A DNA stretch of 64,000 nucleotides from Microbacteriaceae bacterium (GCA_947443745.1 CANEXL010000001.1:3185-67184), one strand, 5' to 3'. Numbered from the stretch's first letter, positions 23,928 to 53,159 are shown. Made by a program: numbers and translations. Notes: generated from the sequence alone by a model not told the origin.

Positions 23928-24625
23928 CAAACAACGAGAACCCGGGCGGACAGAATTCACCGAAGGCAAATAGTCTCGCTGGAGACCACAATTCATCCGA
24001 AATGTTTCACGTGAAACAAACAGAGCGCGAAGAAAATTCTGTCCTGGAGCCTGTCCCGGAGCCTTCCCTGGAACCCGGGCCAGCCGCGGAGCCCGTGGAG
24101 CTGGTGCCGCCAGCCGGCTCAGTGGAGACAGCGGAGACAACGGAGTCGTCAACAATGTATGGGCGGCTCAAGTCCAAGGCGACGGGGGTCCCCTTTAACT
24201 CGCGGCGCAAGGGCGGCCCGCGCCAACGCCGCGACCTGGATACCCCCGGGGAGGCCCCCTTCACGCCCGGCCGGGACCCGCGCGGGCTTGGATCTGTATT
24301 GGATAATCTCACCGCGGATCTCGGGTGGACGTCGACACTGGCCAAGTCCGAGCTTTTGGTCTCTTGGGCGGACGTCGTCGGTGCCGATATCGCCGCCCGC
24401 ACTCAACCCGTCGCGATTGAAGAGCACACCCTTACGGTCTCGTGTGAATCAACGGCGTGGGCGACTCAGCTGCGCTTGATGAGTTCGGACATCTTGACAA
24501 AAATTATTCAGCGCTACCCTGGGGCCGACGTGACGAGCATCCGCTTTCAGGGGCCTAACGCGCCCTCCTGGAAAAGGGGTCCCAGATCAATTCCAGGGCG
24601 CGGCCCTCGCGATACTTACGGCTAG
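23924..24625 (+). CDS. dciA: DUF721/DciA helicase-operating protein
   Basis: W.DVVG..IA, STAWATQLR, GRGPRDTYG C-terminus; between recF and gyrB. Confidence 0.85.
   Translation: MTNNENPGGQNSPKANSLAGDHNSSEMFHVKQTEREENSVLEPVPEPSLEPGPAAEPVELVPPAGSVETAETTESSTMYGRLKSKATGVPFNSRRKGGPRQRRDLDTPGEAPFTPGRDPRGLGSVLDNLTADLGWTSTLAKSELLVSWADVVGADIAARTQPVAIEEHTLTVSCESTAWATQLRLMSSDILTKIIQRYPGADVTSIRFQGPNAPSWKRGPRSIPGRGPRDTYG
24003..24018. promoter_or_regulatory. parS site 3 (perfect)
   Basis: TGTTTCACGTGAAACA within the 5' part of the DUF721 gene. Confidence 0.92.
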
Positions 24626-40122: not shown

Positions 40123-41576
40123 TTACCTAGCTCCGCCTCTAACACTTGTTTCGCGATGGATCCAGCAATCGGGCCACTAAGGCCTTCTTGACCGAGTCCT
40201 CCACCATTCTCGACGAGAACGGTGATGGCATATCGCGGATCGTTCGCTGGGGCGAAGCCGGTAAACCAGAAGGTATAGGGCTCGCCTACACCATTTTCTG
40301 CTGTTCCCGTCTTGCCCGCAACTTGGATACCGCTAATTCTTGCATTACCAGCCAGGCCGTTGTCCACTCCGTCAACCATCATTGCGTTCAATGAGGCGGC
40401 TGTCTCGGCCGATATGGCTTGGCTGTATTGCGTCGCCTGGAAGTCAAACAGCGACTTCAAGGTGGGATCTTGGACGCTCTGAATGAGCGTGGGGGACATT
40501 ACTTTGCCACCGTTGGCGATGGCAGCGGAGACCATGGCGATCTGCAACGGCGTCGCTCTCACGTCGAACTGGCCAAAGGAGGACAGCATGGTCTGCGCAT
40601 CATCCATCACGGTGGGGAAGTTGCTGGCCGCAGTTCGCATGGGAACATCGAACGTGGAATTGAACCCAAACTTCTTGGCCTGCTCGAGCAAGGCTTGGCG
40701 GCCCAACGCTAATCCCAATTCGGCGAAGGGGATGTTGCAGCTCTCGCGGAGGGCTTGCTTAATGGTGACGGTCGCGCCCGCGCCGGGGCAACGGCCACGG
40801 TTCCAGTTGGTGACAATGGAATCGGAGCCAGGAAGCTGCAAGCTGGGCGGATTGTCGAGTTCAGAATCGGCGGTGTACTGTCCGGATTCCAACGCTGCCG
40901 CAGCCACGACCAACTTGAACACCGAGCCGGGAGGGTTGAGGTTTCCGGAGATGGAGCGGTCAATCAGGGGCTGAGTCGGGTCGGCAATGAGGGCGTCATA
41001 GGTGGCGATAACGGAGTTTGTGTCATGCGAGGCCAGCAGGTTCGGATCAAAGCTGGGCTTGGACACCATGGCCAAGATCTTGCCCGTCGACGGCTCGGTC
41101 ACGACCACCGATCCGGCGTAATCGCCCAAGGCATCCCACGCGGCCTGCTGCATGAGTGGATCGAGCGTCAGGTTGACGCTGGCACCTTGAGGGTCTTGCC
41201 CGGTGAGAATGCTGTTGAGGCGATTGAGGAACTGCGAGCCCGACGTGCCGCTCAGCTCGGTATTCATCGCCCCTTCGATACCGGTGAGGCCCTGGGTCAG
41301 GGTGAAGTATCCGGTGACATTGGAGTAAATGAGGGGCGCCGCGTAGGTGCGCTGAAAACGGTATTCATCGCCAACCGGAACGGAGGAGGCAATAGGTTGA
41401 CCGGCCACCAGAATCGCGCCGCGTTGCGAACGGTAGCTGTCGTACAGGGTTCGCGTGTTGCGAGCGTCTGCCGAGAGGTTCGCGTCTTGCCCGACCTGAA
41501 TGACGCTGGCCGAGACGAACAGGGTGATGAAGAAGGCCATCACCAAGATGCTCACGCGCTTGAGTTCGCGGTTCAT
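40119..41576 (-). CDS. pbpA: Class B penicillin-binding protein
   Basis: GSVFK, SCN, KTGTAE. Confidence 0.93.
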   Translation of the reverse strand: MNRELKRVSILVMAFFITLFVSASVIQVGQDANLSADARNTRTLYDSYRSQRGAILVAGQPIASSVPVGDEYRFQRTYAAPLIYSNVTGYFTLTQGLTGIEGAMNTELSGTSGSQFLNRLNSILTGQDPQGASVNLTLDPLMQQAAWDALGDYAGSVVVTEPSTGKILAMVSKPSFDPNLLASHDTNSVIATYDALIADPTQPLIDRSISGNLNPPGSVFKLVVAAAALESGQYTADSELDNPPSLQLPGSDSIVTNWNRGRCPGAGATVTIKQALRESCNIPFAELGLALGRQALLEQAKKFGFNSTFDVPMRTAASNFPTVMDDAQTMLSSFGQFDVRATPLQIAMVSAAIANGGKVMSPTLIQSVQDPTLKSLFDFQATQYSQAISAETAASLNAMMVDGVDNGLAGNARISGIQVAGKTGTAENGVGEPYTFWFTGFAPANDPRYAITVLVENGGGLGQEGLSGPIAGSIAKQVLEAELGK

Positions 41577-42949
41577 GCGCCCACCACCAACCGCGGTTCA
41601 TTACGGATGCTGTCCGAGAGTCGCAGGAGCAAGGCGGCGATCATCCAGTTAGCGACGAGGGAGGAACCACCGGCAGCGAGGAACGGCGTCGTCAGCCCGG
41701 TGAGAGGGATGACCCGCGTGACACCGCCGACGACGATGAACACCTGCAGCGCGATGACGAAGGCGAGGCCCACCGCGAGGAGCTTGCTGAAGTCGTCATG
41801 GCCGGCAAAGCCGATGCGCAGGCCACGACCCACCAGAAGCAGGTACAGGCAGAGAATGGCGAAGACGCCGATCAGCCCGAGTTCTTCGCCGAGGCTCGCG
41901 ATGATGTAGTCGCTTTGCGAAACGGGGGTGATGTAGGGCATGCCTTCACCGAGGCCCGTGCCGATGAGCCCGCCGTGGCCGAGGCCAAAAATTCCTTGAA
42001 CGAGCTGGTAACTGCCGCCGCTCCCGTTGTAGATTTCGGGGTTGAACGCGTTCAACCAGTTGAGGAACCGGTCGTGAACGTAGGGCAAGAACTGATTGGC
42101 CAAGACGGCTCCGACGGCAACCAGACCGAGACCCAACAGCACCCAGCTCAGGCGACCGGTCGCGACATACAGCATGACCAAGAAGAGACCGAAGAACAGA
42201 AGGCCGGTACCGAGGTCACGCTCGAAGACGATGACGGCCATCGACAGAGCCCAGATAACGAGGATGGGCCCCAAGTCGCGCCCACGTGGAAACCTCATAC
42301 CGAGGAACGTGCGCCCCACCATCGAGAGGGAATCGCGCGCCTGAACGAGGTAACCGGCAAAGAAGATGGCCAAGGCAACCTTGGCAATCTCGCCGGGCTG
42401 AAACGTGAGGCTCCCAATCTGGATCCAGACGCGGGCACCGTTCAGCTCAATTCCGAGCCCCGGCACCATGGGAAGGAGAAGGAGAATCACACCGACGAGG
42501 CAAGCCACGTACGTGTAGCGCTGCAAAATACGGTGCTGACGAATCAACATAATGACTGCGAACGCGCCACCGATGGCGAGAGCGCTCCAGGCGATTTGTT
42601 TGAAGGCCAGCGAATCCCATCCGGTGTTACCCAGAGCAATATCGATGCGATAAATTTCGGCAATGCCAATGCCATTCAGCAGAGTCGCAATGGGCAAGAT
42701 GAGCGCATCGGCCTGGGGGGCAACAAAGCGCATCGCGACGTGAATGGCCAACACGAGAATTCCGAGCAACGCACAGAGCGTGAGCGGGCCCGCGTCGATT
42801 GTGCCCAGAGCTCCGAGTTGCACGAGCACGAGGGCCGCGAGGTTGATGGCGCTCGCGGCAATGAGCAACGCGAGTTCAACGTTGCGCATGCGCTGGGAGG
42901 GCCGGGCGCGCTTGAGCCGGGGAATGCTGGCCGTCAGGAGGGAGCTCAT
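41573..42949 (-). CDS. rodA: SEDS family glycosyltransferase
   Basis: FQPGEIAK, RDLGT, EELG, IPLTG, GGSSL. Confidence 0.94.
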   Translation of the reverse strand: MSSLLTASIPRLKRARPSQRMRNVELALLIAASAINLAALVLVQLGALGTIDAGPLTLCALLGILVLAIHVAMRFVAPQADALILPIATLLNGIGIAEIYRIDIALGNTGWDSLAFKQIAWSALAIGGAFAVIMLIRQHRILQRYTYVACLVGVILLLLPMVPGLGIELNGARVWIQIGSLTFQPGEIAKVALAIFFAGYLVQARDSLSMVGRTFLGMRFPRGRDLGPILVIWALSMAVIVFERDLGTGLLFFGLFLVMLYVATGRLSWVLLGLGLVAVGAVLANQFLPYVHDRFLNWLNAFNPEIYNGSGGSYQLVQGIFGLGHGGLIGTGLGEGMPYITPVSQSDYIIASLGEELGLIGVFAILCLYLLLVGRGLRIGFAGHDDFSKLLAVGLAFVIALQVFIVVGGVTRVIPLTGLTTPFLAAGGSSLVANWMIAALLLRLSDSIRNEPRLVVGA

Positions 42950-44173
42950 TTATTTGGCTGCCGCGGGAGTGAGGCGGGCAACGACAGCTTCGGCTTCTTC
43001 GAGGGAAGCGGTGGACACGGTGGCGATGACTTGGGCGCGTTGGAACGTGTTGAGAGCGTCGAGGCGGATTCCCGTGTCGTTATAAAGGTGTGAGAGTTTC
43101 CATGGTCCGAGGTCTTGCGGAATGCCCTGGAAGATAACGACTGTGCCGGCCGACGAGCCGACAAAGAAGCGGCTCTGCGTGTAGCGATACCCCTCAACTC
43201 CGGCGGCGAAAAGAGCCCCCAAGAGCACAATGATCGTGCCAATCAGCCAGGCGCGGCGGCGGAAGCGCCTCTTGCGGGCGATCTCACTTTCGGCAGTTGG
43301 GGGGTGCTTGTGAATGGGAACATCGCTGGTCGAAACCGGCAGAGAGCGGGAGGCCTGTCGCGAGGCGCGCACGACGTCGGCACGGGGCGACGGTTCAGCG
43401 ATGGAGATCGGTTCTGCTGCGGACCCCACGAGAGAGGAGACCTGCGCGGGTTGACCGTCGGTGACGTTGGCCACAACAACGGTGACGTTATCGGGAGCCC
43501 CACCATCGAGGCTGCCATTCATGAGGGCGAGGGCAATGTCTTCGGCGTCAGCATCCGCCGTCATCATGTCGTGAATTTCGTCACGGGTCAGCACGCCGGT
43601 CAAACCGTCGGAGCACAGCATCCAGCGATCGCCGGGTTCGGTGCCCACAATCATGGTGTCGATTTCGGGGTTCGCGTCTACGTCGCCCAGAACGCGCATG
43701 AGAACAGAACGGCGCGGGTGCACTTTGGCCTCCGCCTCGGTGATGCGGCCGCTGTCGATCAGGCGCTGCACGAACGTGTGATCGATTGTGACCTGCGAGA
43801 GTTCGCCGCCGCGCAGAAGATAGATGCGGGAGTCGCCGATGTGGGCGATGGCCACCTTGTCGCCGACCCGGATGATGGCGCTGACGGTGGTGCCCAAGCC
43901 AGCGAGCTCCGGGTGGTCGTAGACAGTATCGCCGAGCAGGTCATTGGTGGCGAGCAGGGTCTTCAGCAGAGCGCCGCGCGCCTCCTCGGGGGAATCGAAG
44001 GGGCGATCAAGTTCAAGGAGTTGGCGGATGGCCATGTGGGAGGCAACGTCACCACCGGCGTGACCACCCATTCCATCGGCGACGGCCAGAAGGTGCGTTC
44101 CGGCGTAGCCCGAGTCCTGGTTGGAGGAGCGGACCTTGCCTACATCGGAGACAGCCGCATTGTCAGCACTCAT
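42950..44173 (-). CDS. pstP: PP2C Ser/Thr phosphatase
   Basis: NQDS, VADGMGGH, GDSR, CSDGL, DNVT; TM. Confidence 0.94.
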   Translation of the reverse strand: MSADNAAVSDVGKVRSSNQDSGYAGTHLLAVADGMGGHAGGDVASHMAIRQLLELDRPFDSPEEARGALLKTLLATNDLLGDTVYDHPELAGLGTTVSAIIRVGDKVAIAHIGDSRIYLLRGGELSQVTIDHTFVQRLIDSGRITEAEAKVHPRRSVLMRVLGDVDANPEIDTMIVGTEPGDRWMLCSDGLTGVLTRDEIHDMMTADADAEDIALALMNGSLDGGAPDNVTVVVANVTDGQPAQVSSLVGSAAEPISIAEPSPRADVVRASRQASRSLPVSTSDVPIHKHPPTAESEIARKRRFRRRAWLIGTIIVLLGALFAAGVEGYRYTQSRFFVGSSAGTVVIFQGIPQDLGPWKLSHLYNDTGIRLDALNTFQRAQVIATVSTASLEEAEAVVARLTPAAAK

Positions 44174-44181
44174 GGGCCCGC

Positions 44182-44718
44182 CTACCGGCGAACCTCAAAG
44201 CTGGTTGCCCCGATCGTAATGGTGGTGTTCAGGGGAACGGGAGTGGGAGAGGTGACGCGAACGCCGGCCAGGAGCGTGCCGTTCGTGGAGTCGAGGTCGC
44301 GCAGAACCCAGGTTCCGCCGCGGGCTTCGAGCCGCGCGTGATGGGTGGAGGTGTAATCGTCTTTGATGACCAGGCTGGAGTCGGAGGACCGGCCGATGGT
44401 AATCGTGTCGCCCGAAAGCGGCAGTTCTTGCCCCGCCTTGTCGCCCGAGGTGATGACAAGTCTCAGCGGCGCAGAACCGATGGTGGCGGGAGCCGAGATC
44501 ACGTCGGTTGCGGCCGCCGGAATGCGCGGGGTTGCTGAGGTGAGGAAAGCATTCGCGGCATCGCTCCGAGTGCCCTGGGCTGCGGCGCCCTGCGGGGGAA
44601 GACGGCGAACGCGTTGGCCGAAAAGGTCGCTTCTCACGGCGTACACAATAAAGAAGACAAAGACCCACAGGGCAATCAAAAAACTGATGCGCAGGATCAG
44701 GAGGGTGAGCTCACTCAC
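44182..44718 (-). CDS. fhaB: FHA domain protein FhaB
   Basis: N-terminal TM; IGRS, S.HHARL, DLDSTNGT. Confidence 0.92.
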   Translation of the reverse strand: MSELTLLILRISFLIALWVFVFFIVYAVRSDLFGQRVRRLPPQGAAAQGTRSDAANAFLTSATPRIPAAATDVISAPATIGSAPLRLVITSGDKAGQELPLSGDTITIGRSSDSSLVIKDDYTSTHHARLEARGGTWVLRDLDSTNGTLLAGVRVTSPTPVPLNTTITIGATSFEVRR

Positions 44719-45439
44719 GCGGCCCCCAGAATCCGCCGGCATCGGGGGTGGGCGACGACGGACTCGCGTCGGCCTGCGCCTCAGGAATCATGCGGAACGT
44801 GATGCGGGTATGACCCATTTCGATGACCCCGTCTGACTCCAAGGGGGCGGAGACGAGCCGTTGCCCGTTGAGGGTTGAGCCGTTAGTGGAGCCGAGATCG
44901 TTTGCCTGGGCTCGAGTGCCATCCCACAGAACCTCGACGTGACGGCGGGAGATTCCGGAGTCGTCGACCGTGATGTCGGCCTCGGTACCGCGGCCAATAA
45001 CCGTTCGCGATTTTGTTAACGGATACCGCTTGCCAGCGATTTCAAGAACGGCCACCCACGCGATTGCTCCTCCAGCATTGGTGGAGTCAACCTGAACGAC
45101 ACCCAGGGAGAGAGAGGAGTCTGCCTGCAGTGTGATGCGGATGCCGCCGGCGAACTGAAACTTTTGAGACTGGGCGTGCTTGGTCACCAGACGCGTTAGC
45201 TCATCGATCAGGGTTGGCCCCATGGCGGACATCCGCGCGTAATCGGCGCTCGCCATGCGTACGGTGAAGATGTTGGGAACCAGAATGCGGTCACGCGAAA
45301 CCACGGCAGCCTTGGTGTCGAGCTCACGTTTCAGGGCCGACGTGATTTCAACGGGCTGGAGTCCCGAGCGAAAAGTCTTGGCAAAGGCGCCATTGACGGC
45401 GCGCTCAAGACCTTTCTCAAGATTGTCCAGAATGCCCAA
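44711..45439 (-). CDS. fhaA: DUF3662-FHA protein FhaA
   Basis: EKGLERAVNGAFAK..QPVEI; IGRG, SRRH, GSTNG; TTG start after AAAGGAGA. Confidence 0.92.
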   Translation of the reverse strand: MGILDNLEKGLERAVNGAFAKTFRSGLQPVEITSALKRELDTKAAVVSRDRILVPNIFTVRMASADYARMSAMGPTLIDELTRLVTKHAQSQKFQFAGGIRITLQADSSLSLGVVQVDSTNAGGAIAWVAVLEIAGKRYPLTKSRTVIGRGTEADITVDDSGISRRHVEVLWDGTRAQANDLGSTNGSTLNGQRLVSAPLESDGVIEMGHTRITFRMIPEAQADASPSSPTPDAGGFWGPRE

Positions 45440-45522
45440 TTGGTCTCCTTTGGGGGTGAAGCGCGGCCGTTTCCATGATACTTGCCCGATTGGGAGCATG
45501 CTGGATGCCCTCTCAGGCCACC

Positions 45523-46947
45523 CTAGCGAGCCGTTTCGAAACGAACCGAGGCATCCAGGCCGCCTTCGGAGCGCGGAGACAGCCGTGCGGTGCCTCTACT
45601 GGCGCGAGCAAGTTGGGCGACAATAGCGAGCCCCAGGCCGCTGCCGCCGATATTGGAAGAGGCACGCCAGAAGCGGTCGAAGGCTCGCGTGCACTCGTCG
45701 GGGCTCAGGCCGGGGCCCTCATCGAGAACATGCAGGGTGGTGTGGCTGCCGGCACTCACAACGCGCACCGTAATTTTGGAATGTGCTGGGCTCACCGTGA
45801 GGGCGTTGTCGACGTAGTTGTCCACGATCTGCTCGATGGCCGAGGGAGAGGCCGTAACGAACGCATCAACCGGTCCTTCATAACGGATGCGCACCGACGA
45901 CTCGGCACCGAGGGCCTGCCACTGCTCGACGCGTTCCCGCGCAATCGCCGCGACATTGAAGGTTTCCAGCGGCGCCGACGACGCTTCGGTGCGGCTCAAG
46001 AGCAGTAAGCCTTCGATGAGATTGCCGAGGCGATCGACCTCCACCTGGGCGGCAGCGAGGCGCTCGCCGGCGGCGCGCGGATCTGTTGCGAGGAGTTCGT
46101 GGGCGCGTTCCAGTCGCAATCGCAATGCCGTGAGGGGGGTACGCAACTGGTGGGAGGCGTCCGCGGCAAACATGCGTTGCTGGGTGACCAGCTCTTCAAG
46201 GCGTTCGGCCATTGTATTAAAGGAGCGCGAGAGCGATGTCAGTTCGGCCGCGCCTCGCTTCTCGTCGGCACGGGCCGTCAGGTCGCCTTCGGCGAGGAGC
46301 TCGGTTGTCGCTCGAAGACGCGTGAGCCTCTTGGCAACACTTCCGGACACCAACAAGCCCACGATGCCGGCCAGGACCACGGAGCTGAGGGCCACGACGC
46401 CGAGCCGCCAGAGTTGGCTGTTGACGGCATCGGTCACTGCTTGGTCGGGATAGGTAAGGCGAACCGCGCCCAAGACACTTTCGCCACTGAGAACGGGAAC
46501 GGTGACATACAAAAGCTCTTGGTTCAGCGTTGTCGAATAACGGTGGCCACTGCTGATGTTGCCGGCTAAGGCATCGGCAATTTCTGGCCGGCTGAGGTAG
46601 GAGGCGCCCACCACCGACTGGTCATCGTCGCTGGTGACAATGGCGGTGCCTGCCTTGTCGACAATAACGACGCGAGCCCCTCCCGCATCGCGGTACTGGC
46701 GAGCAAGGTCGCTGAGGGCCTTCGAGTCGGCAGGTGTGACCGTTGCGGTTCCTCCGACGGAAGCGGAGGCCGCTGCTGCGGCGAGCGACTCGCTACCGTG
46801 ACCGGCCAGAACGAAGGCGTCGCGTTCGAGGCCAGTGACGATGTGATCGTGCTCCGCTTGGTGCAAATAAAAGGCAAGGGGAATGTCTTGCGTGAGCAGA
46901 ACGAGAAACGTGACCGCCATCAAGGCGCCCATGAACCGCCACTTCAC
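45523..46947 (-). CDS. Sensor histidine kinase (2 TM, extracytoplasmic sensor, HAMP)
   Basis: ASHQLRTPLT H-box, NYVDNAL, DEGPG, FDRF, GSGLGL. Confidence 0.95.
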   Translation of the reverse strand: MKWRFMGALMAVTFLVLLTQDIPLAFYLHQAEHDHIVTGLERDAFVLAGHGSESLAAAAASASVGGTATVTPADSKALSDLARQYRDAGGARVVIVDKAGTAIVTSDDDQSVVGASYLSRPEIADALAGNISSGHRYSTTLNQELLYVTVPVLSGESVLGAVRLTYPDQAVTDAVNSQLWRLGVVALSSVVLAGIVGLLVSGSVAKRLTRLRATTELLAEGDLTARADEKRGAAELTSLSRSFNTMAERLEELVTQQRMFAADASHQLRTPLTALRLRLERAHELLATDPRAAGERLAAAQVEVDRLGNLIEGLLLLSRTEASSAPLETFNVAAIARERVEQWQALGAESSVRIRYEGPVDAFVTASPSAIEQIVDNYVDNALTVSPAHSKITVRVVSAGSHTTLHVLDEGPGLSPDECTRAFDRFWRASSNIGGSGLGLAIVAQLARASRGTARLSPRSEGGLDASVRFETAR

Positions 46948-47621
46948 GCAGGTTCTCCGAACCGAAAACCGACACCGCGAACCGATTCAATCCACAGCGG
47001 ATTTCCGAGCTTCTTGCGAATGGCCGCTATGTGCGCATCCAGTGTCTTGGTGGTGCCATACCAGTTGGTATCCCAGACGTCGTGGAGGATGTCGCCGCGC
47101 CGAAACACCGCCCCGGGATCGTCGCTGAGGTAAACCAGTAGTTCGAATTCTTTGGGGGTGAGGTGAACATCCGTGCCATTTAAGGAGACCCGTTGTGCCC
47201 GAACATCGAGAGTCAAGGCTCCGAAGACGCGTTGGGCAGCCGGGGCAGGTTCCACGACGGTGGAGCCCGTTCGGCGAGCGACCGCACGAATGCGGGCCAC
47301 AAGTTCGCGCATGCCGAAAGGTTTGACGACGTAATCATCCGCCCCCATCTCTAAGGCGATGACACGATCAATTTCTTCGCCCCGGGCGCTGACCACAATG
47401 ATGGGCGTTTGAGACGTGACCCGGATGGCCCGACAGACATCGGTGCCTTCCATGTCGGGCAAGCCAAGGTCGAGCAAAATCAAGTCGGGAGCCCAGGATG
47501 CGGCGGCCTCGAGTGCAGCCGTTCCCGTGGCCACTCGGTGGGCTTCGAAGCTTGCATTCTCCAGCCCGTCCACAATGCCGTCGGCAACGGAGTCATCGTC
47601 TTCCACTACCAGAACGCGCAT
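46944..47621 (-). CDS. OmpR/PhoB family response regulator
   Basis: VVEDD, LLDLGLPD, GADDYVVKPF, LTPKEFELL, VRGVGF. Confidence 0.96.
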   Translation of the reverse strand: MRVLVVEDDDSVADGIVDGLENASFEAHRVATGTAALEAAASWAPDLILLDLGLPDMEGTDVCRAIRVTSQTPIIVVSARGEEIDRVIALEMGADDYVVKPFGMRELVARIRAVARRTGSTVVEPAPAAQRVFGALTLDVRAQRVSLNGTDVHLTPKEFELLVYLSDDPGAVFRRGDILHDVWDTNWYGTTKTLDAHIAAIRKKLGNPLWIESVRGVGFRFGEPA

Positions 47622-47679
47622 GGCTCAATTCTGGTGGGAACGCGAGCTAAAACCTATGAGGTGGGCGTGCTGGTTGCAA

Positions 47680-47720
47680 TCTTGGATAAGTCTTGGATAA
47701 GTCGCGGGCGACTCTTGGAC
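47680..47720 (+). promoter_or_regulatory. 11-bp-periodic direct-repeat operator, copy 1
   Basis: TCTTGGA at 47680, 47691 and 47713, all in 11-bp phase. Confidence 0.85.
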
Positions 47721-47765
47721 GGGTGGCGGGAACCTCTTTACCGTGTGTTTCGTAGCGTTGGAGAC

Positions 47766-48194
47766 ATGAAAATACAACTGATCACCGCCTTAGTCGTTGC
47801 TGGAGTTCTGGGAACTGCAGCGACCGCCATGGCCGTAAACGCCGATACTTTCGTCGCCCCAACCGGATTGCCTGTCGTTTCGACAGACGCACCGACCGCT
47901 GATCCTCTGGTCACGTCTGACCCTTCAGAGACATCAACTCCAGACCCATCGAGCACCCCTGACCCTTCGGTCACGCCAGTTCCCGACCCCACCGGCACAC
48001 CCAAGGTGGATGACGACGATGCGCTAGAGAACGGTGCGAGTGAGAGCTCGGACGACGCGTCAGATGATGTGTCAGAAGGCCTTGAAGTGCACGATGGTTC
48101 CACTCCCTCGACAAGCACGCCTGCTCCCAGCCAGGGAACGAGCGCACACCACACCGACTCCGATAGCGCCTCCGATAGCGACCGCTATATCTAG
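47766..48194 (+). CDS. Secreted low-complexity acidic protein, paralog 1
   Basis: MKIQLITALVVAGVLGTAATAMA-VNADT signal; P/T/S/D-rich body. Confidence 0.8.
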   Translation: MKIQLITALVVAGVLGTAATAMAVNADTFVAPTGLPVVSTDAPTADPLVTSDPSETSTPDPSSTPDPSVTPVPDPTGTPKVDDDDALENGASESSDDASDDVSEGLEVHDGSTPSTSTPAPSQGTSAHHTDSDSASDSDRYI

Positions 48195-48240
48195 AAAACT
48201 GCTCTCAGGGGGAGAGTAGGGGGAGAGAGCCCCTCGGAAA

Positions 48241-48260
48241 TCTTGGACAAGTCTTGGATT
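48241..48260 (+). promoter_or_regulatory. Direct-repeat operator, copy 2
   Basis: TCTTGGACAAG-TCTTGGATT. Confidence 0.85.
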
Positions 48261-48303
48261 TTCGGGGGGTTCTTTTGTGTCCCACATTTCGTACTCTTAG
48301 GGA

Positions 48304-48726
48304 ATGAAGTCTTCGTTAGTGACAGCCCTCATCATTGTGGGCGTGCTCGGAACCGCGACCGCGGCCATGGCCATTAATACCGACACCCTCTCCAAGATTG
48401 ATACGGGTGTCATCGGTAAGGCCAGCGAGGTGCTGGTTCCTGTTGTCACGGATGCCCAACAGCCAGGGCCATTTTCGACGACCCAGCCCGCTCCCGGAGC
48501 GAGCACAGCGCCGTCGTATTCTCCGGAATCCTCAGGCGGCAGCGGTTCTCCGACGAAAGACGTAGGAACGGCGCCCGCTCCGAGCGTTTCTGATCCCGTC
48601 GCCCCGGCCGCACCAGTTGTGGGTGGGTCTGAGGCGACAACGCACTCTAGCTCTAGCCCCTCGTCAACGCCTTCTCACAGCGGTGAATCGGAGCCGTCTT
48701 CTGGCGAGACAGGTCACGACGACTAG
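48304..48726 (+). CDS. Secreted low-complexity protein, paralog 2
   Basis: MKSSLVTALIIVGVLGTATAAMA-INTDT; S/P-rich; ends GHDD. Confidence 0.82.
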   Translation: MKSSLVTALIIVGVLGTATAAMAINTDTLSKIDTGVIGKASEVLVPVVTDAQQPGPFSTTQPAPGASTAPSYSPESSGGSGSPTKDVGTAPAPSVSDPVAPAAPVVGGSEATTHSSSSPSSTPSHSGESEPSSGETGHDD

Positions 48727-48762
48727 AGCCAAGCGTCTCTAACCTCACATGACTTTCGTAAA

Positions 48763-48783
48763 CCTTGGACAAGTCTTGGATAT
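48763..48783 (+). promoter_or_regulatory. Direct-repeat operator, copy 3
   Basis: CCTTGGACAAG-TCTTGGATAT. Confidence 0.85.
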
Positions 48784-48825
48784 TCAAGGGATTCTTCTTT
48801 ACTCGCCATTTTGTACATTTAAATC

Positions 48826-49317
48826 ATGAAAACACAACTCCTCTCAGTCCTCACGGTTGTGGGTGTTCTTGGAACCGCCACCGCCGCGTTGGCCGTCAAC
48901 ACAGATACGTTGACCAACCGCGAAGCCGGGGCGACAGATTCGTCGGCCCAGGCTAATGTGCTCTCGACACCTTCTGGTTCATCGTCAGCCCCGACCCCTG
49001 AGGCCATCCCGGCCGCACCCGTCACCCCGGGTTCACCTTCTTCGGAAGGCACCCCCGCCCAAAGCGCCGTTCAACAGCGCACAGACCTTACTCCTCCTTC
49101 GGCTTCGTTGGCCGTGACGGTAGACACTCCATCCCGCCCCACGACGCCACCCGTTGCGCCGGCGGTAACGCCACCCACAACCGCTCCCGTTGACGGAACA
49201 ACCGGCGGTTCGGGAGCAGCGCCGTCAACCCCTGGAACCTCCTATGGTGACGATGGCGATTCTTCGGATGGCTCTTACGAGAGCCACGACAACGAGGATG
49301 GTGGAAGCGATGACTAA
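48826..49317 (+). CDS. Secreted low-complexity protein, paralog 3, with VDGTTGGS motif
   Basis: MKTQLLSVLTVVGVLGTATAALA-VNTDT; acidic tail. Confidence 0.82.
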   Translation: MKTQLLSVLTVVGVLGTATAALAVNTDTLTNREAGATDSSAQANVLSTPSGSSSAPTPEAIPAAPVTPGSPSSEGTPAQSAVQQRTDLTPPSASLAVTVDTPSRPTTPPVAPAVTPPTTAPVDGTTGGSGAAPSTPGTSYGDDGDSSDGSYESHDNEDGGSDD

Positions 49318-49765
49318 GGGCATCCACCCCGCCGCGCGGGCACGGACTTTTGTTGGTGCCACATCGCTCTTGGCTCTTGTGGGAATTGTCACAGGCTTCC
49401 AGTTCGCGGCTAACGCCCAAGAAGCCGGCGTTGCGAGCGGTGCGGCTACGGCCAAGGGCACAGCGACAACGCAAGCCATTGATCCCGCGACGGGGAAGCC
49501 TGTCGCTCCCGTCGACGCGACCGCTCCTGTTTCTGAAGCGGTTCCCGCTCCCGCCGTTGACCCCGCAGCCCCACCCGCCGTGGCACCCGCTCCAGTTGCG
49601 GCACCTGCAGCACAACCGGCCGCGGCACAACCAGCGGCACAACCCGCTGCGGCTCCTGCCGCGGCGCCTGCTCCAGCACCCGCTCCTGCCCCGGCTCCTG
49701 TTGTCGCTCCGGCACCTGCGCCGGTAAATGGAACGACGGGTGGGTCGGGCGCCGTCAAGCCCTAA
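49310..49765 (+). CDS. Exported Pro/Ala-rich protein ending in VNGTTGGSGAVKP
   Basis: ATG overlaps the end of the upstream gene; hydrophobic N-terminal segment ending ANA; (AP)n linker. Confidence 0.8.
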   Translation: MTKGIHPAARARTFVGATSLLALVGIVTGFQFAANAQEAGVASGAATAKGTATTQAIDPATGKPVAPVDATAPVSEAVPAPAVDPAAPPAVAPAPVAAPAAQPAAAQPAAQPAAAPAAAPAPAPAPAPAPVVAPAPAPVNGTTGGSGAVKP

Positions 49766-49831
49766 CGGCACTTCGGCCCGCCCGCCTGCCCGAGCGCAAC
49801 CACTCACTCCACGACTGAAGCGAGCCTCGCC

Positions 49832-50857
49832 GTGACTTCTGCTCCGCACTCTGCCACGAATCCCGCCACGAACCCTGCCACGAACCCCGCCGTTACCGGG
49901 GACAATATTTCGCGAGACGCCCTTCGCGCCGTCTTTTCTCTCACGGGAACGCAGCCGCGGGTAATTTCGTCGCGCCAGGAAATAATGGGCGGCCACGGCA
50001 CGATTACGTTAGTCGGTGCCTCCGACGCCCTGATGACGCGGGCGTGGGACGTTGTGCGCACGTGCGAAAAACGCTGGACGCGGTTCTCGCCCGACAGTGA
50101 TATTTCTCGACTCAACCTCGCCGAAGGGGCGCCCGTTGAGGTTGATCCACTCACCTTCCGCCTGATCTCCGCAATGAGGGTGGGCCACGAAATATCCTTG
50201 GGTGCTTTCGATCCCACTCTCTTAGTCGACGAGCTCAAGGCGGGTTACGGCGCCTCCGTTCTCGACCCGTCCCGTGCGACGACCCTGCCGGCCTCGGCGG
50301 TGAGCCCGGGGAACATGGCGGGCATCCGCCTGGCTGACACCACCGTCACCCTGCCGCTGGGCACCGTGCTGGACGCCGGGGGAATTGGCAAGGGACTTGC
50401 CGCCGACCTCGTGTGTGCATTCGCGCTCGCCGAGGGGGCGTGGGGCGTAATGGCGGAGATCGGGGGCGACATTGCGGTTGCGGGGAACGCTCCGGACGGA
50501 GTGGCCTGGCGACTCGGCATTGAGAACCCTTTTGACACGCAGGCGCATGCGGCGATCATCCGGTTATCTGAAGGCGCCATTGTGACGTCGAGCCAACGCA
50601 AACGTCGATTTGGCCCGGAAGGCAACGAGACCCATCACCTGATTGACCCGGCGACCCATGCCAGCGCGAAAACGAACGTGCAAACGGTGACGGTGATTGC
50701 GGCAACCGCGGCGCGAGCCGAAGCCCTCACGAAACCCGGTTTTCTTCAAGAAACGACTCGCTACCTGGAATGGTTGCCGACCGTCGGTGCGGCGGGCATG
50801 GTTATAGATGACGCGGGGGCCGAACTGGTTTCCGAGAACTGGATTCGATATCAATGA
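49832..50857 (+). CDS. apbE: FAD:protein FMN transferase (ApbE family)
   Basis: RFSPDSDISRLN, GAFDPT, LDAGGIGKGLAAD, IGGDI, WRLGIENP, TSS, HHLIDP. Confidence 0.93.
   Translation: MTSAPHSATNPATNPATNPAVTGDNISRDALRAVFSLTGTQPRVISSRQEIMGGHGTITLVGASDALMTRAWDVVRTCEKRWTRFSPDSDISRLNLAEGAPVEVDPLTFRLISAMRVGHEISLGAFDPTLLVDELKAGYGASVLDPSRATTLPASAVSPGNMAGIRLADTTVTLPLGTVLDAGGIGKGLAADLVCAFALAEGAWGVMAEIGGDIAVAGNAPDGVAWRLGIENPFDTQAHAAIIRLSEGAIVTSSQRKRRFGPEGNETHHLIDPATHASAKTNVQTVTVIAATAARAEALTKPGFLQETTRYLEWLPTVGAAGMVIDDAGAELVSENWIRYQ
49853..49891 (+). repeat. 12-bp tandem repeat x3 (ATNP)
   Basis: GCCACGAAYCCY units. Confidence 0.85.
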
Positions 50858-52434
50858 ATGATCCGCACATCTGGTGGTACATCACCCGTGCCAGCGCGCT
50901 GATTGCGTGGGCGTTGATGACGCTCTCTGCCATCTGGGGCATTCTGCTCTCCACCCGCATCATGCGCCGCATCGATAACCCCGGTTGGCTGCGCGACTTG
51001 CACTCCTACCTGGGCGGAATGACGCTCGTCATGGTGGGCCTGCACATGGGCAGCCTCATGCTCGACGGCTATCTTCGTTATACGCTCGGCGACCTTCTCG
51101 TTCCTTTCAGCAAGGACTACCGACCGTTTGCCGTGGCCCTCGGAATTCTGGCCTTTTATATATTGCTGGCCGTTCAGGGGTCCTCCCTTCTCATTGCGCG
51201 CTTGCCGCGAAAGGTGTGGAAGGTCATTCATTACGCCAGCTACGCGACGCTGATCTTGGTGTCGTTGCATGCCGGATGGACGGGCACGGATGTTGGAGCC
51301 CTCTGGTACAAAATTCTGGCGATTACCCTCATTGGCGCCGCGACGATTGCGGTCGTCGTTCGAGTGGTGACGCGCGGCCGCACGGGACGAGCTCCCACGG
51401 CGAAAGCATGGACGCACAAATCGGGCACCATTCCCAGCGTTGCTCCTGTTGCTGCTGGTGCTCCCCTTCTTCCGGCGACGCGCACGATGGTGGTTGCTTC
51501 CACATCCATGGCAGCGGATGCCGTGATGGCCATTCGGCTCGTGTCCCTCGGCGGATCGGCTGGTGGCGGGACTGGTGCTGTGGGCTCTGGGGCCTTGCCC
51601 GTCTGGTATCCCGGCGCGCACATCACGCTGTCACTGCCTAACGGGTTGCAGCGCCAGTACTCGCTGTGCGGCGACCCCGCCGAGCGCGACCACTTCGACA
51701 TCGCGGTACTGAAGACCCGTCACTCCGAGGGGGGCAGCGAGTTCATTCACGCGAACCTCACCCCGGGCATGACGCTCGAGGTCTCTGGGCCGCTCAACCA
51801 CTTCGAGCTGGAGCCCGCCTCCGACTACCTCTTTATTGCCGGCGGTATCGGCATCACGCCGATTAAGGCCATGATCGAGTCGTTGCCCGAGCGTCGCCAT
51901 TGGCGCCTCATCTATGCCGGGCGTTCGCGCACGACGATGGCGTTCTTGCCCGAGTTGCTTCAGCGCTACCCCGATCGCATTTCGGTGCATGCCGCCGATG
52001 AACAGGATGCCGAACTCGACATCGCCTCCCTCGTGGTCGACACCGATGCGCAGGTCTACTGCTGTGGCCCCGAGTCGCTGATGAGCACCACGGCGGCGCT
52101 GGTACCGGCCGCCCAAATGCATTCCGAGCGCTTCGTCGCCGTCGAGCGCACCTCCGACGTTGCCGCCCAAGCGATTGACGTCACCTGCCGCAAGAGTAAG
52201 AAGGAGTTCGTGGTCGGTGCCGACCAGAGCATTCTTGAGGCGATGGAAGCCAACGGTATTCCCGTGCTGGGCTCGTGTCGCAAGGGGGTGTGCGGAACCT
52301 GCGAGGTGCGCATCGTGGAGGGCGAGCCCGTGCACCTTGACTCGGTGATGCCCGATGACGAAAAGGATTCTTTGCGCGTGATGTACCCGTGCGTCTCGCG
52401 GGCCGTGGGCAAGGAGCTCGTGCTCGACATCTAG
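50854..52434 (+). CDS. Ferric reductase-like (heme b) TM domain fused to a PDR/VanB-type flavin/NAD(P)H/2Fe-2S reductase
   Basis: TM histidines in LHSYLG, LHMG, WKVIHYASY, LHA; RQYSLC, GGSE, AGGIGITP, YCCGP, CRKGVCGTC...C. Confidence 0.9.
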   Translation: MNDPHIWWYITRASALIAWALMTLSAIWGILLSTRIMRRIDNPGWLRDLHSYLGGMTLVMVGLHMGSLMLDGYLRYTLGDLLVPFSKDYRPFAVALGILAFYILLAVQGSSLLIARLPRKVWKVIHYASYATLILVSLHAGWTGTDVGALWYKILAITLIGAATIAVVVRVVTRGRTGRAPTAKAWTHKSGTIPSVAPVAAGAPLLPATRTMVVASTSMAADAVMAIRLVSLGGSAGGGTGAVGSGALPVWYPGAHITLSLPNGLQRQYSLCGDPAERDHFDIAVLKTRHSEGGSEFIHANLTPGMTLEVSGPLNHFELEPASDYLFIAGGIGITPIKAMIESLPERRHWRLIYAGRSRTTMAFLPELLQRYPDRISVHAADEQDAELDIASLVVDTDAQVYCCGPESLMSTTAALVPAAQMHSERFVAVERTSDVAAQAIDVTCRKSKKEFVVGADQSILEAMEANGIPVLGSCRKGVCGTCEVRIVEGEPVHLDSVMPDDEKDSLRVMYPCVSRAVGKELVLDI

Positions 52435-52490
52435 TGCCTCCGCCTCAAATGGCGGCGGCCTCCATTGCCATGATAGATTGACCCAGTTAC

Positions 52491-52573
52491 GCGCGAGTGG
52501 CGAAATGGCAGACGCGCCGGCTTCAGGTGCCGGTGCCCGCAAGGGCGTGGGGGTTCAAGTCCCCCCTCGCGCA
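52491..52573 (+). tRNA. tRNA-Leu(CAG)
   Basis: GCGCGAG...CTCGCGCA; anticodon loop TTCAGGT; long variable arm. Confidence 0.96.
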
Positions 52574-52581
52574 CGTATCGA

Positions 52582-52629
52582 AACCCGCTCCGACCAGGGC
52601 TTCACTGGGAGGGGCGGGTTCTCTTTTTT
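52582..52629 (+). terminator. Terminator after tRNA-Leu
   Basis: AACCCGCTCC...GGGGCGGGTT followed by CTCTTTTTT. Confidence 0.7.
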
Positions 52630-52645
52630 GCCGTCTTGATTCCAG

Positions 52646-52672
52646 TTATTGCGCTTATTGCGCTTATTGCGT
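52646..52672 (+). repeat. 9-bp tandem repeat x3 (TTATTGCGY) in a promoter
   Basis: TTATTGCGC TTATTGCGC TTATTGCGT upstream of the TACAAT -10 element. Confidence 0.85.
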
Positions 52673-52703
52673 TTACACACGCACTTGTGCTTACAATGGG
52701 GAC

Positions 52704-53159
52704 ATGTCTCTCACTGTGAACGAACATCGCCCTAACGACGATTCAGAATTGGCCGGTCGTGCTTTGGTTTCCGTACGCCGTGCTCTTGCCGAACATCACG
52801 GAGAGGATGGCCCCGTCTCCTTAATTGTGGAAGGCGAGAAGGCTCCTCTCGCTGTTCCCCGCCAGGCTATTGACTTGCTGGTGAAAATTTTGGCGAACAT
52901 TGCCGCAGGCCAGAGCGTTAGCATCGTCCCTCAGCACGCAGAGCTCACGACGCAACAAGCAGCCGAAATTTTAAACGTCTCTCGCCCATTCCTAGTCAAA
53001 CTCCTCGACGAGGGAAAGATTGAGTTCAAGCGTGTCGGCACTCATCGCCGCATTCGAGCGGATTCATTGCTTCAATACAAACACGACGATGACGCGAGGG
53101 GCCGGACAGAAGTAGCCGAGTTGATACAACTAGGCCAGGAAATGGGCCTCGCGCGGTGA
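52704..53159 (+). CDS. Excisionase-like HTH_17 DNA-binding protein (putative antitoxin)
   Basis: ELTTQQAAEILNVSRPFLVKLLDEGKI....GTHRRI. Confidence 0.88.
   Translation: MSLTVNEHRPNDDSELAGRALVSVRRALAEHHGEDGPVSLIVEGEKAPLAVPRQAIDLLVKILANIAAGQSVSIVPQHAELTTQQAAEILNVSRPFLVKLLDEGKIEFKRVGTHRRIRADSLLQYKHDDDARGRTEVAELIQLGQEMGLAR

Follow-up and report, generated by a model that had tools for sequence, protein, structure and literature searches.

A putatively two-component-controlled variant of the actinobacterial MsrQ-like flavinylation systems with a candidate disordered flavin tether

Gene clusters in which apbE accompanies an MsrQ-like membrane protein are broadly conserved and typical in Actinobacteria (Méheust et al. 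2021, eLife, PMC8238504, Fig. 4B). The pipeline of that survey retained clusters only if ApbE, FMN_bind, DUF2271, or DUF3570 carried a signal peptide or lipidation site, and 4% of the genomes with apbE were left as "orphan" (PMC8238504). In the validated ApbE substrates of the literature that we surveyed, covalent FMN lies in or against a folded domain, such as FMN_bind, DUF2271, DUF3570, NqrB/RnfD, Flavodoxin_4, or FMN_red. The acceptor motif of ApbE is D-x-x-[ST]-G-A-[ST], with FMN on the last residue; seven-residue tags suffice and work best at protein termini, and, in a tested substrate, replacing Asp with Ala had a minor effect, and Gly-to-Ala or Ala-to-Val substitutions left about half of the flavinylation (PMC12052999). 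Natural motifs on unstructured C-terminal extensions occur in FMN_red proteins, where the flavin folds back into a pocket (PMC11334425). Here we describe a locus at positions 45523-52434 of a 64,000-nucleotide stretch of DNA (GCA_947443745.1 CANEXL010000001.1:3185-67184, hereafter the window) from a metagenome-assembled genome (MAG) of Alpinimonas sp. (Microbacteriaceae; 88% complete, 2.0 Mb). Judging from its sequence, we propose, with a probability of about one in two, that this locus is a two-component-controlled variant of the actinobacterial MsrQ-like flavinylation-associated electron-transfer system, in which the flavin would be carried by a small tether protein.

The locus comprises eight genes, in which a sensor histidine kinase and an OmpR/PhoB-type regulator on the minus strand diverge from three small paralogous genes (A1, A2, and A3), a gene for a Pro/Ala-rich protein (B), apbE, and a gene for a membrane cytochrome fused to a reductase module of the phthalate-dioxygenase-reductase (PDR) type (RED), all on the plus strand. 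The preliminary description of this DNA had listed the same eight genes, every one of which was located as described, and the ATGA overlap that it had reported between apbE and RED was also seen, the RED start lying on the apbE stop. Because the A3 and B genes overlap by 8 nucleotides and are followed by short gaps into apbE-RED, these genes look like one operon; a promoter/terminator consensus scan of positions 47500-52700 gave matches no more numerous than in shuffled sequences. In the nearest genome, that of Alpinimonas psychrophila DSM 23737, gene order is identical and RED is 88% identical. Seventeen further loci whose flanking DNA is long enough have kinase, regulator, small genes, ApbE, and RED arranged in this same order, and the ApbE/RED overlap recurs in nearly all of them. 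The loci come from Aurantimicrobium, Cryobacterium, Salinibacterium, Lysinimonas, and Pseudolysinimonas and from MAGs labelled Arthrobacter, Aeromicrobium, Microbacteriaceae, and Actinomycetota, so that the co-occurrence of these genes in related genomes, which the preliminary description had named as a check on its proposal, is found across genera. Because the independent loci with this gene order number about 20, the arrangement is far from chance. Of 301 sampled Microbacteriaceae genomes, 34 (in 14 of 101 genera) encode a RED-type membrane domain, and the distribution of the module is patchy but recurrent. Reduced versions exist as well. A Rhodoglobus MAG (L054:4956-7899) has B-ApbE-RED with no A gene or two-component system nearby, and two MAG loci that are probably from Thermoleophilia have ApbE with a membrane-only cytochrome and no PDR module; the first of these also shows kinase, regulator, A-like, and B-like genes, and the second, a 2.3-kb contig, carries a B-like gene as well as the terminal part of an A-like one. 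The invariant core of the module is B, ApbE, and the five-helix cytochrome.

The proposal turns on B (49310-49765, plus strand; 151 amino acids), which is predicted to be a single-pass membrane protein. It has no family in Pfam or NCBIfam and is of low complexity beyond its N-terminal hydrophobic segment. The 16 B proteins that were aligned do so at their ends only: a Lys/Arg-rich N terminus with the motif H-P-A-x-x-A-R leads into a hydrophobic helix ending in a nearly invariant G-F-Q, and the Pro/Ala spacer in the middle, of about 100 residues in the window, varies in length and sequence. Pro-7, Ala-8, Ala-22, and Ser-146 are invariant. By the positive-inside rule, the N terminus should lie inside and the tail outside. 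The last 7-14 residues follow the consensus P-[VP]-x-[AG]-[ST]-[ST]-[GA]-x-S, continued by G-G or K-P, and contain, in the window, the candidate flavinylation motif N-G-T-T-G-G-S (residues 140-146; 49727-49747, plus strand), of which Ser-146 is the proposed FMN acceptor. All 18 B proteins contain the pattern [ST][ST][GA][GASQ]S exactly once, and always among their last 14 residues; in shuffled B sequences it appeared anywhere in just 1-11% of trials. Set against D-x-x-[ST]-G-A-[ST], the B proteins have an invariant Ser as the putative acceptor, Ser or Thr without exception at position -3, and Gly or Ala at position -2; tested substrates tolerate substitutions singly (PMC12052999). As a less circular test, a profile of B residues 1-48 was compared with 1.8 billion representative proteins. 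It gave 44 matches, 26 of which carry the strict motif in their tails; most of the other full-length ones differ from it by one residue, and the remainder are contig-end fragments or two unrelated weak matches. Among the divergent matches whose context was checked, two lie directly upstream of apbE, and a third is on a 981-bp contig too short for neighbors. One divergent B locus ends in D-A-H-T-G-G-S, and another has T-G-A-S exactly. B always stands immediately upstream of ApbE, also in the minimal Rhodoglobus locus.

The product of apbE (49832-50857, plus strand; 341 amino acids) belongs to the FAD:protein FMN transferase family (PF02424, 4.9e-47, 161 bits). It matches ApbE chains in the PDB at 4e-21 to 3e-12, with the FAD-binding and H-H-x-x-D-P motifs aligned, and comparison with 1vrm and 4xdt shows D-x-G-G-I-x-K-G, T-S-x, and H-H-x-x-D-P to be present; in the A-D-A-L motif, read by eye, Asp is replaced by Glu in the window's copy. 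Fold and motifs are those of an ApbE, and its gene is part of the cluster. No signal peptide or lipobox was found: as judged by eye, the N terminus is polar and without a hydrophobic stretch, both here and in the orthologs, and there is no upstream in-frame extension. We note that the window's protein starts with three A-T-N-P repeats (within 49832-49960), which are not conserved. The locus thus lacks the signal peptide or lipidation site that Méheust et al. 2021 required, and their pipeline would probably have discarded this variant. Further, no FMN_bind, DUF2271, or DUF3570 substrate gene, typical of such clusters, accompanies this ApbE, since Pfam gave no match to these domains in A1-A3 or B, nor in the related loci.

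Elsewhere in the same genome, contig C5 (L005:6852-9661) carries a canonical MsrQ-like trio of a six-helix Ferric_reduct + FAD_binding_8 + NAD_binding_1 protein, an exported FMN_bind protein, which has a long Ser/Gly/Thr/Ala/Asn linker, and a second ApbE. FMN_bind was found in this genome only there, beside its own ApbE, and the two ApbEs of the genome show no significant BLAST similarity to each other. In four of the five complete genomes with the module, a Pfam FMN_bind gene adjoins the second ApbE, and in the fifth a divergent FMN_bind-like lipoprotein does so. The earlier statement that no folded substrate is encoded here therefore holds for the locus but not for the genome, and the FMN_bind protein elsewhere that was named as a possible real target does exist, yet beside an ApbE of its own that is dissimilar to the one studied here, so that B stays the likelier target. 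As a separate observation, both presumed substrates are exported, yet a signal peptide or lipobox is missing from each of the two ApbEs of the genome; this also holds for the ApbEs in Aurantimicrobium (L025), in the Rhodoglobus MAG (L054), and in loci L027 and L051.

RED (50854-52434, plus strand; 526 residues) joins a membrane domain (residues 1-177; 50854-51384) to a cytoplasmic module (residues 247-526; 51592-52434). The C-terminal 280 residues match 2pia (9e-44) and the CYP116B reductase domains 6kbh (6e-61) and 6laa (3e-55), and Fer2 (4e-14) and NAD_binding_1 (1e-06) are both above the Pfam cut-off. As in the PDR-type family, flavin and NAD(P)H modules are followed by a plant-type 2Fe-2S domain with four Cys residues; across the alignment, the RxYS and GGS flavin motifs and the ferredoxin Cys residues are conserved, Cys-475, Cys-480, and Cys-483 being invariant and Cys-513 nearly so. 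The membrane domain of the window's RED scores under the Pfam Ferric_reduct cut-off. Orthologs pass PF01794 (L045 with 32.5 bits versus a cut-off of 28), and many other matches carry this family; His-50, His-64, His-126, and His-139 are invariant in 18 sequences; and an AlphaFold2 model with five long helices (predicted local distance difference test, pLDDT, of 85.8) has its best fold matches in SpNOX, STEAP4, STEAP1, and CsNOX5 TM (template-modeling scores of 0.58-0.62 by query). Because the orthologs pass, the four His residues are invariant, and the fold matches NOX/STEAP, we assign the domain to the Ferric_reduct family, and on the same three grounds the locus contains the PF01794-type membrane protein of MsrQ-like systems. 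The heme b membrane domain of the preliminary description is thereby borne out, its own Pfam score remaining sub-threshold, and so is the proposed flow of electrons from NAD(P)H through flavin and 2Fe-2S to heme b: domain content and invariant ligands point to a path NAD(P)H → flavin → 2Fe-2S → inner heme → outer heme.

In the ferric reductase domain (FRD) family, helices 2-5 form the cofactor bundle, with the His pairs on helices 3 and 5 (PMC12525009). The His residues of RED, in pairs 14 and 13 residues apart, which would ligate two bis-His heme b sites, lie on the second and fourth of five modeled helices, where the FRD fold has six; this suggests that RED begins at helix 2 (h2-h6) and has no helix 1, and no upstream in-frame extension of the open reading frame (ORF) could supply it. 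The positive-inside rule predicts an outside N terminus and a cytoplasmic reductase module. On the outer face, residues 1-12 (50854-50890) contain an invariant P-x-x-W-W-Y-x-x-R stretch beside the outer heme side; as speculation, a flavin could dock on these aromatic residues.

Given these two proteins, an alternative has to be weighed in which ApbE modifies some other target, either the S-x-G-G-S flavin-phosphate loop of RED or a protein encoded elsewhere, and in which A and B have nothing to do with flavin and are proteins of the envelope, the B motif serving glycosylation, processing, or docking. In its favor, a signal peptide is lacking in ApbE, the translation of which is coupled to that of RED via ATGA, RED has a conserved S-[RE]-G-G-S near its flavin site, cytosolic ApbEs acting on cytoplasmic reductases are known (PMC12052999), and the B motif is non-canonical. 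Against RED as the target, the GGS loop is the usual flavin-phosphate motif of PDR proteins, which are not ApbE-dependent, and it lacks Ser/Thr at -3; the RED alignment contains no other conserved [ST]G[AGS][ST] site; and the probable Thermoleophilia loci keep ApbE together with A-like and B-like genes in the absence of the PDR module, which indicates that this module is not what ApbE modifies. With only an ordinary GGS flavin loop conserved and the module missing from those loci, RED was rejected as the ApbE target. As for a target encoded elsewhere, the FMN_bind proteins found have adjoining ApbEs of their own, and B directly precedes ApbE even in the minimal locus. We consider this alternative unlikely.

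The divergent genes encode a kinase of 474 amino acids (45523-46947, minus strand; HATPase_c 9e-19, HisKA 2e-11, HAMP 5e-11) with an extracytoplasmic Cache-like domain (sCache_3_2, 5e-06, under the Pfam cut-off) and a regulator of 225 amino acids (46944-47621, minus strand; Response_reg 5e-27, Trans_reg_C 1.5e-21), which has no NCBIfam equivalog above cut-off and is 57-93% identical across syntenic loci. A direct repeat that is a putative operator, CTTGGAT AAGT CTTGGAT, precedes A1 (47681-47698, plus strand), and exact matches precede A2 (48242-48259, plus strand) and A3 (48764-48781, plus strand). The 18-bp pattern CTTGGAY-N-AGT-CTTGGAT has these three exact copies in the window, where 0.02 are expected, and no others in the whole 2.0-Mb assembly. 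The copies lie 62-85 bp upstream of the A start codons with an 11-bp repeat spacing, and 11 other loci have a related box, TTGGAC-NNN-TCTTGGA, some 60 bp upstream of their A genes. The kinase and regulator domains, together with direct repeats before the candidate target genes, are those of an OmpR/PhoB-type system, and the pattern would fit an OmpR-type regulator with a dedicated regulon; the earlier proposal of control by the adjacent sensor gains support from this conserved, predicted operator before the small genes. A copy with two mismatches (CTTGGATCTGTATTGGAT) at 24287-24304, far from the locus, is probably due to chance.

The small proteins A1 (47766-48194; 142 amino acids), A2 (48304-48726; 140 amino acids), and A3 (48826-49317; 163 amino acids), all on the plus strand, have no family in Pfam or NCBIfam and are of low complexity after an N-terminal hydrophobic segment. 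Across 22 A proteins, this segment is a conserved helix, M-K-x-x-...-V-G-V-L-G-T-A-x-A-A-M-A-V-N-x-D-T-L with an invariant Asn, followed by about 20 weakly conserved residues and a disordered Ser/Thr/Pro/Asp chain. The tails are acidic, often contain His, and end in Asp-Asp in 21 of 23 sequences, among them A2 (HDD) and A3 (SDD); A1 has an atypical tail ending in RYI. Some A proteins, in two loci (L052:3539-4927 and L055:2077-3329), terminate in 20-50 consecutive Asp residues. The conservation of the helix and its invariant Asn suggest that it is more than a mere signal peptide, and the acidic tail suggests cation binding. In our view, the A proteins are accessories, whether of the kinase or of the membrane complex, and no part of the model is weaker. 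All 93 database relatives of A are annotated as "hypothetical," none with a Pfam domain.

A3 also contains the same kind of motif as B, D-G-T-T-G-G-S at residues 123-129 (49192-49212, plus strand), and the peptide G-T-T-G-G-S-G-A is common to A3 and B with several synonymous codon differences between the copies, which points to selection on the peptide. Of 23 A proteins, 7 carry a B-type motif; most of these are from Alpinimonas and Aurantimicrobium, and in several the motif is within shuffling expectation. With the motif in so few of them and with conserved features that are different, the A proteins were rejected as general flavin carriers. Thus, the idea of FMN on unstructured tethers, which the preliminary description had extended to all four small exported proteins, gains comparative support for B, given its C-terminal Ser motif in all 18 proteins and in most full-length relatives found with the N-terminal profile, but not for A. 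In one locus (L055), the order is A, B, A', ApbE, and A' bears G-T-S-G-G-S-G. The A-like proteins of the probable Thermoleophilia loci (L045:4001-4552, P0147-P0213) are 183-196 amino acids long, with an almost invariant membrane helix, an invariant terminal Asp-Asp, and an eight-strand beta domain (AlphaFold2 core pLDDT 83-91); an S-S-G-G-S-like stretch lies just after this domain. Foldseek against the PDB and ESM Atlas gave no convincing match to the beta domain (best lmo2686, E 0.025, template-modeling score 0.28), and Pfam gave none to these proteins, and the route to a function of A through its folded relatives was dropped.

These features could also be read as those of small membrane modulators of the kinase, that is, A and B might be feedback connectors comparable with MgrB/PhoQ, whose Asp-Asp tails or helices would act on the Cache-like sensor or on membrane helices, with ApbE-RED being separate. 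The A genes would be the direct, and apparently the only, operator-bearing targets of the regulator, their helices are conserved beyond the need of a signal peptide and have the invariant Asn, the C-terminal Asp-Asp is almost universal, and the kinase has a Cache-like domain on which they could act. However, B-ApbE-RED exists without kinase, regulator, and A, which implies that at least B belongs with ApbE and RED, and the A3-B overlap and the run-on into apbE-RED resemble one operon. We regard this explanation as quite improbable.

Taken together, we propose the following mechanism for a flavinylated B tether. By homology, RED carries electrons from cytoplasmic NAD(P)H through its PDR-type flavin and 2Fe-2S cluster to an inner heme (His-50/His-126) and an outer heme (His-64/His-139), and so to the external side of the membrane. 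ApbE would join FMN by a phosphoester to Ser-146 of B, which would be anchored by its N-terminal helix, N terminus inside, and would hold the FMN at the end of its linker of about 100 Pro/Ala-rich residues, predicted to be long enough to cross the cell wall, so that the flavin could shuttle electrons from the outer heme to an external acceptor. The conserved helix of B may pack on RED in place of the absent first helix. Helix 1 of the FRD fold runs from inside to outside, and the B helix has the orientation of the helix that RED is missing. The kinase and regulator would switch on the A genes and, via A3, the B-apbE-RED operon by binding the 11-bp-spaced direct repeat. The A proteins would be membrane-anchored, acid-tailed accessories, possibly cation binders or acceptor presenters, which is the least certain step. 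It is possible, although in our estimate somewhat short of even odds, that B is a natural "flavin tag," an ApbE substrate without a flavin-binding fold, the FMN of which swings from the outer heme of a helix-1-less RED, bound by the B helix, to acceptors in or beyond the cell wall.

Several points weigh against this proposal. Free on a disordered chain, the FMN would lack a protein pocket that could tune its potential. The tail of B is predicted to be outside, yet ApbE is made without a signal peptide, which implies that flavinylation precedes export or that ApbE reaches the outside by an unrecognized route; the same puzzle applies to the C5 ApbE and its exported FMN_bind protein. Further, position -1 of the B motif is usually Gly (also Ala, Ser, or Gln), where the canonical residue is Ala, the order of Ala and Gly is swapped in several sequences, and position 1 is Asp in some sequences only, being often Asn, Gln, Ala, or Ser. 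The counts of the motif come from the very sequences that served to define it, a circularity that the N-terminal-profile test lifts in part, its matches being relatives. No metal transporter or reductase partner was found linked to the locus, and the reduction of metals and the repair of envelope proteins, which the preliminary description had suggested as possible purposes, are guesses. Finally, for the packing of the B helix on RED, the support from a complex prediction of RED(1-185) and B(1-50) with custom alignments is weak. It scored 0.44 (best of three controls, 0.00); 58 of 80 solved complexes attained that mark, as against 2 of 110 mismatched pairs, but only 7 of the 80 solved complexes pass with scores of 0.60 or less, as do both of the passing mismatches. 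Between runs, at least 98% of the contacts agree, and the partner pLDDT is at least 70. The prediction is weak, and we take the packing of the B helix on RED as a lead only.

It is highly improbable that the chemistry is instead cytoplasmic or internal to the membrane, with B inverted or unexported and its flavin an extra cytoplasmic-side cofactor feeding the inner heme, like the FMN in MsrQ and STEAP: ApbE does appear cytoplasmic and MsrQ binds FMN on its cytosolic side (PMC12525009), but the positive-inside rule puts the Lys/Arg-rich N terminus of B inside and its tail outside, RED already has a full flavin/2Fe-2S donor module and two heme sites, and it is hard to see why a cytoplasmic cofactor would need a Pro/Ala spacer of 100 residues.

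Locus DNA is present in lake-water metagenomes of three studies, one further run, the possible source, not being counted. One freshwater metatranscriptome contains contigs about 96% identical to parts of A1, B, and the start of apbE; contigs from RNA libraries do not prove transcription, and they were not counted as such. A single "joint" in this data set, at 49214/49795 and with one side of 34 letters, is probably a repeated motif in a related strain. Upstream of the locus (41573-45499) lie the conserved actinobacterial rodA/ftsW, a PP2C phosphatase gene, and two FHA-domain genes. The neighbors of the module differ between genomes, with an fhaA-pstP-rodA cluster here and in Aurantimicrobium, menaquinone genes in Cryobacterium, and cytochrome bc1/aa3 genes in the Rhodoglobus MAG, where the trio lies between glycerol kinase and argininosuccinate synthase genes; as they are not conserved beyond the module, the flanking genes were dropped as a clue to function. 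On the other side, a tRNA-Leu(CAG) gene (52491-52574) closes the locus directly 3' of RED and is overlapped by an ORF (52497-53159) that ends in an excisionase-like helix-turn-helix. At the equivalent position, Aurantimicrobium (L025) has helix-turn-helix, EcoRI-methylase, and GmrSD genes, and the site may thus be a hot spot for integration.

If B is flavinylated, it would be a new class of ApbE substrate, and nature, too, would use a bare motif on a disordered tether, so far just an engineering trick; an FRD protein could operate with its first helix supplied in trans; and surveys that need an ApbE signal peptide or a known substrate domain would miss a class of systems in the abundant small-genome Actinobacteria of lakes. 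Should the natural flavin-tag reading be true, Gram-positive freshwater Actinobacteria would have a new route to export reducing power. The locus is a compact putative regulon of one kinase, one regulator, one operator, and few targets, and as such is suited to finding the redox or metal signal. Our literature searches found no report on the flavinylation of disordered proteins or on FRD fusions with 2Fe-2S.

The module had been put forward as a candidate undescribed one, but it belongs in kind to the MsrQ-like clusters of Méheust et al. 2021 (PMC8238504), as a variant that lacks FMN_bind. It shares with them a PF01794-type di-heme membrane protein with a C-terminal NAD(P)H module beside apbE, the actinobacterial background, and a proposed NAD(P)H-to-outside electron transfer via a flavinylated carrier, of which contig C5 of its own genome holds a textbook case. 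It differs in that a domain-less Pro/Ala tether with a C-terminal motif takes the place of FMN_bind, DUF2271, or DUF3570, that the dehydrogenase is of the PDR type with 2Fe-2S, whereas theirs is FAD_binding_8 with an NAD-binding domain, that a signal peptide is missing from ApbE, that the membrane domain consists of five helices rather than six, and that A proteins and a dedicated two-component system are added. The extracellular electron transfer system of Listeria monocytogenes (Ndh2, EetA/B, FmnB, and PplA; PMC8238504) is likewise that of a Gram-positive bacterium: there, an ApbE-type enzyme puts the flavin on a surface protein tethered to the membrane, and this protein passes electrons to acceptors outside. 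However, PplA is a lipoprotein with folded FMN_bind domains, FmnB is extracytosolic, and the electrons travel via the quinone pool instead of a fused NAD(P)H/2Fe-2S/di-heme protein.

With regard to the proposed carrier, the Flavin-tag, as Tong et al. 2021 is reported in PMC12052999, similarly shows that a short ApbE motif on an unstructured terminus suffices, and the motif of B is at the extreme C terminus; that tag is artificial, and the B motif has Gly, Ala, or Ser in the place of the canonical Ala. The C-terminal extensions of FMN_red proteins (Huang et al. 2024, PMC11334425) differ because their tail folds into the flavin pocket of a folded domain, which B does not have. With regard to RED, the four-helix core and the heme-ligating His residues on two helices are common to the FRD proteins NOX, STEAP, and MsrQ, but RED has no helix 1 and carries a C-terminal PDR-type dehydrogenase that ends in a ferredoxin domain, and, in contrast to MsrQ and STEAP, it keeps all four His residues, which implies two hemes. 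The order flavin-NAD-[2Fe-2S] and a strong sequence similarity link this dehydrogenase to phthalate dioxygenase reductase and CYP116B, and, as in CYP116B, it is fused to the heme protein that it would reduce; in RED, however, that partner is a transmembrane di-heme cytochrome b and not an oxygenase.

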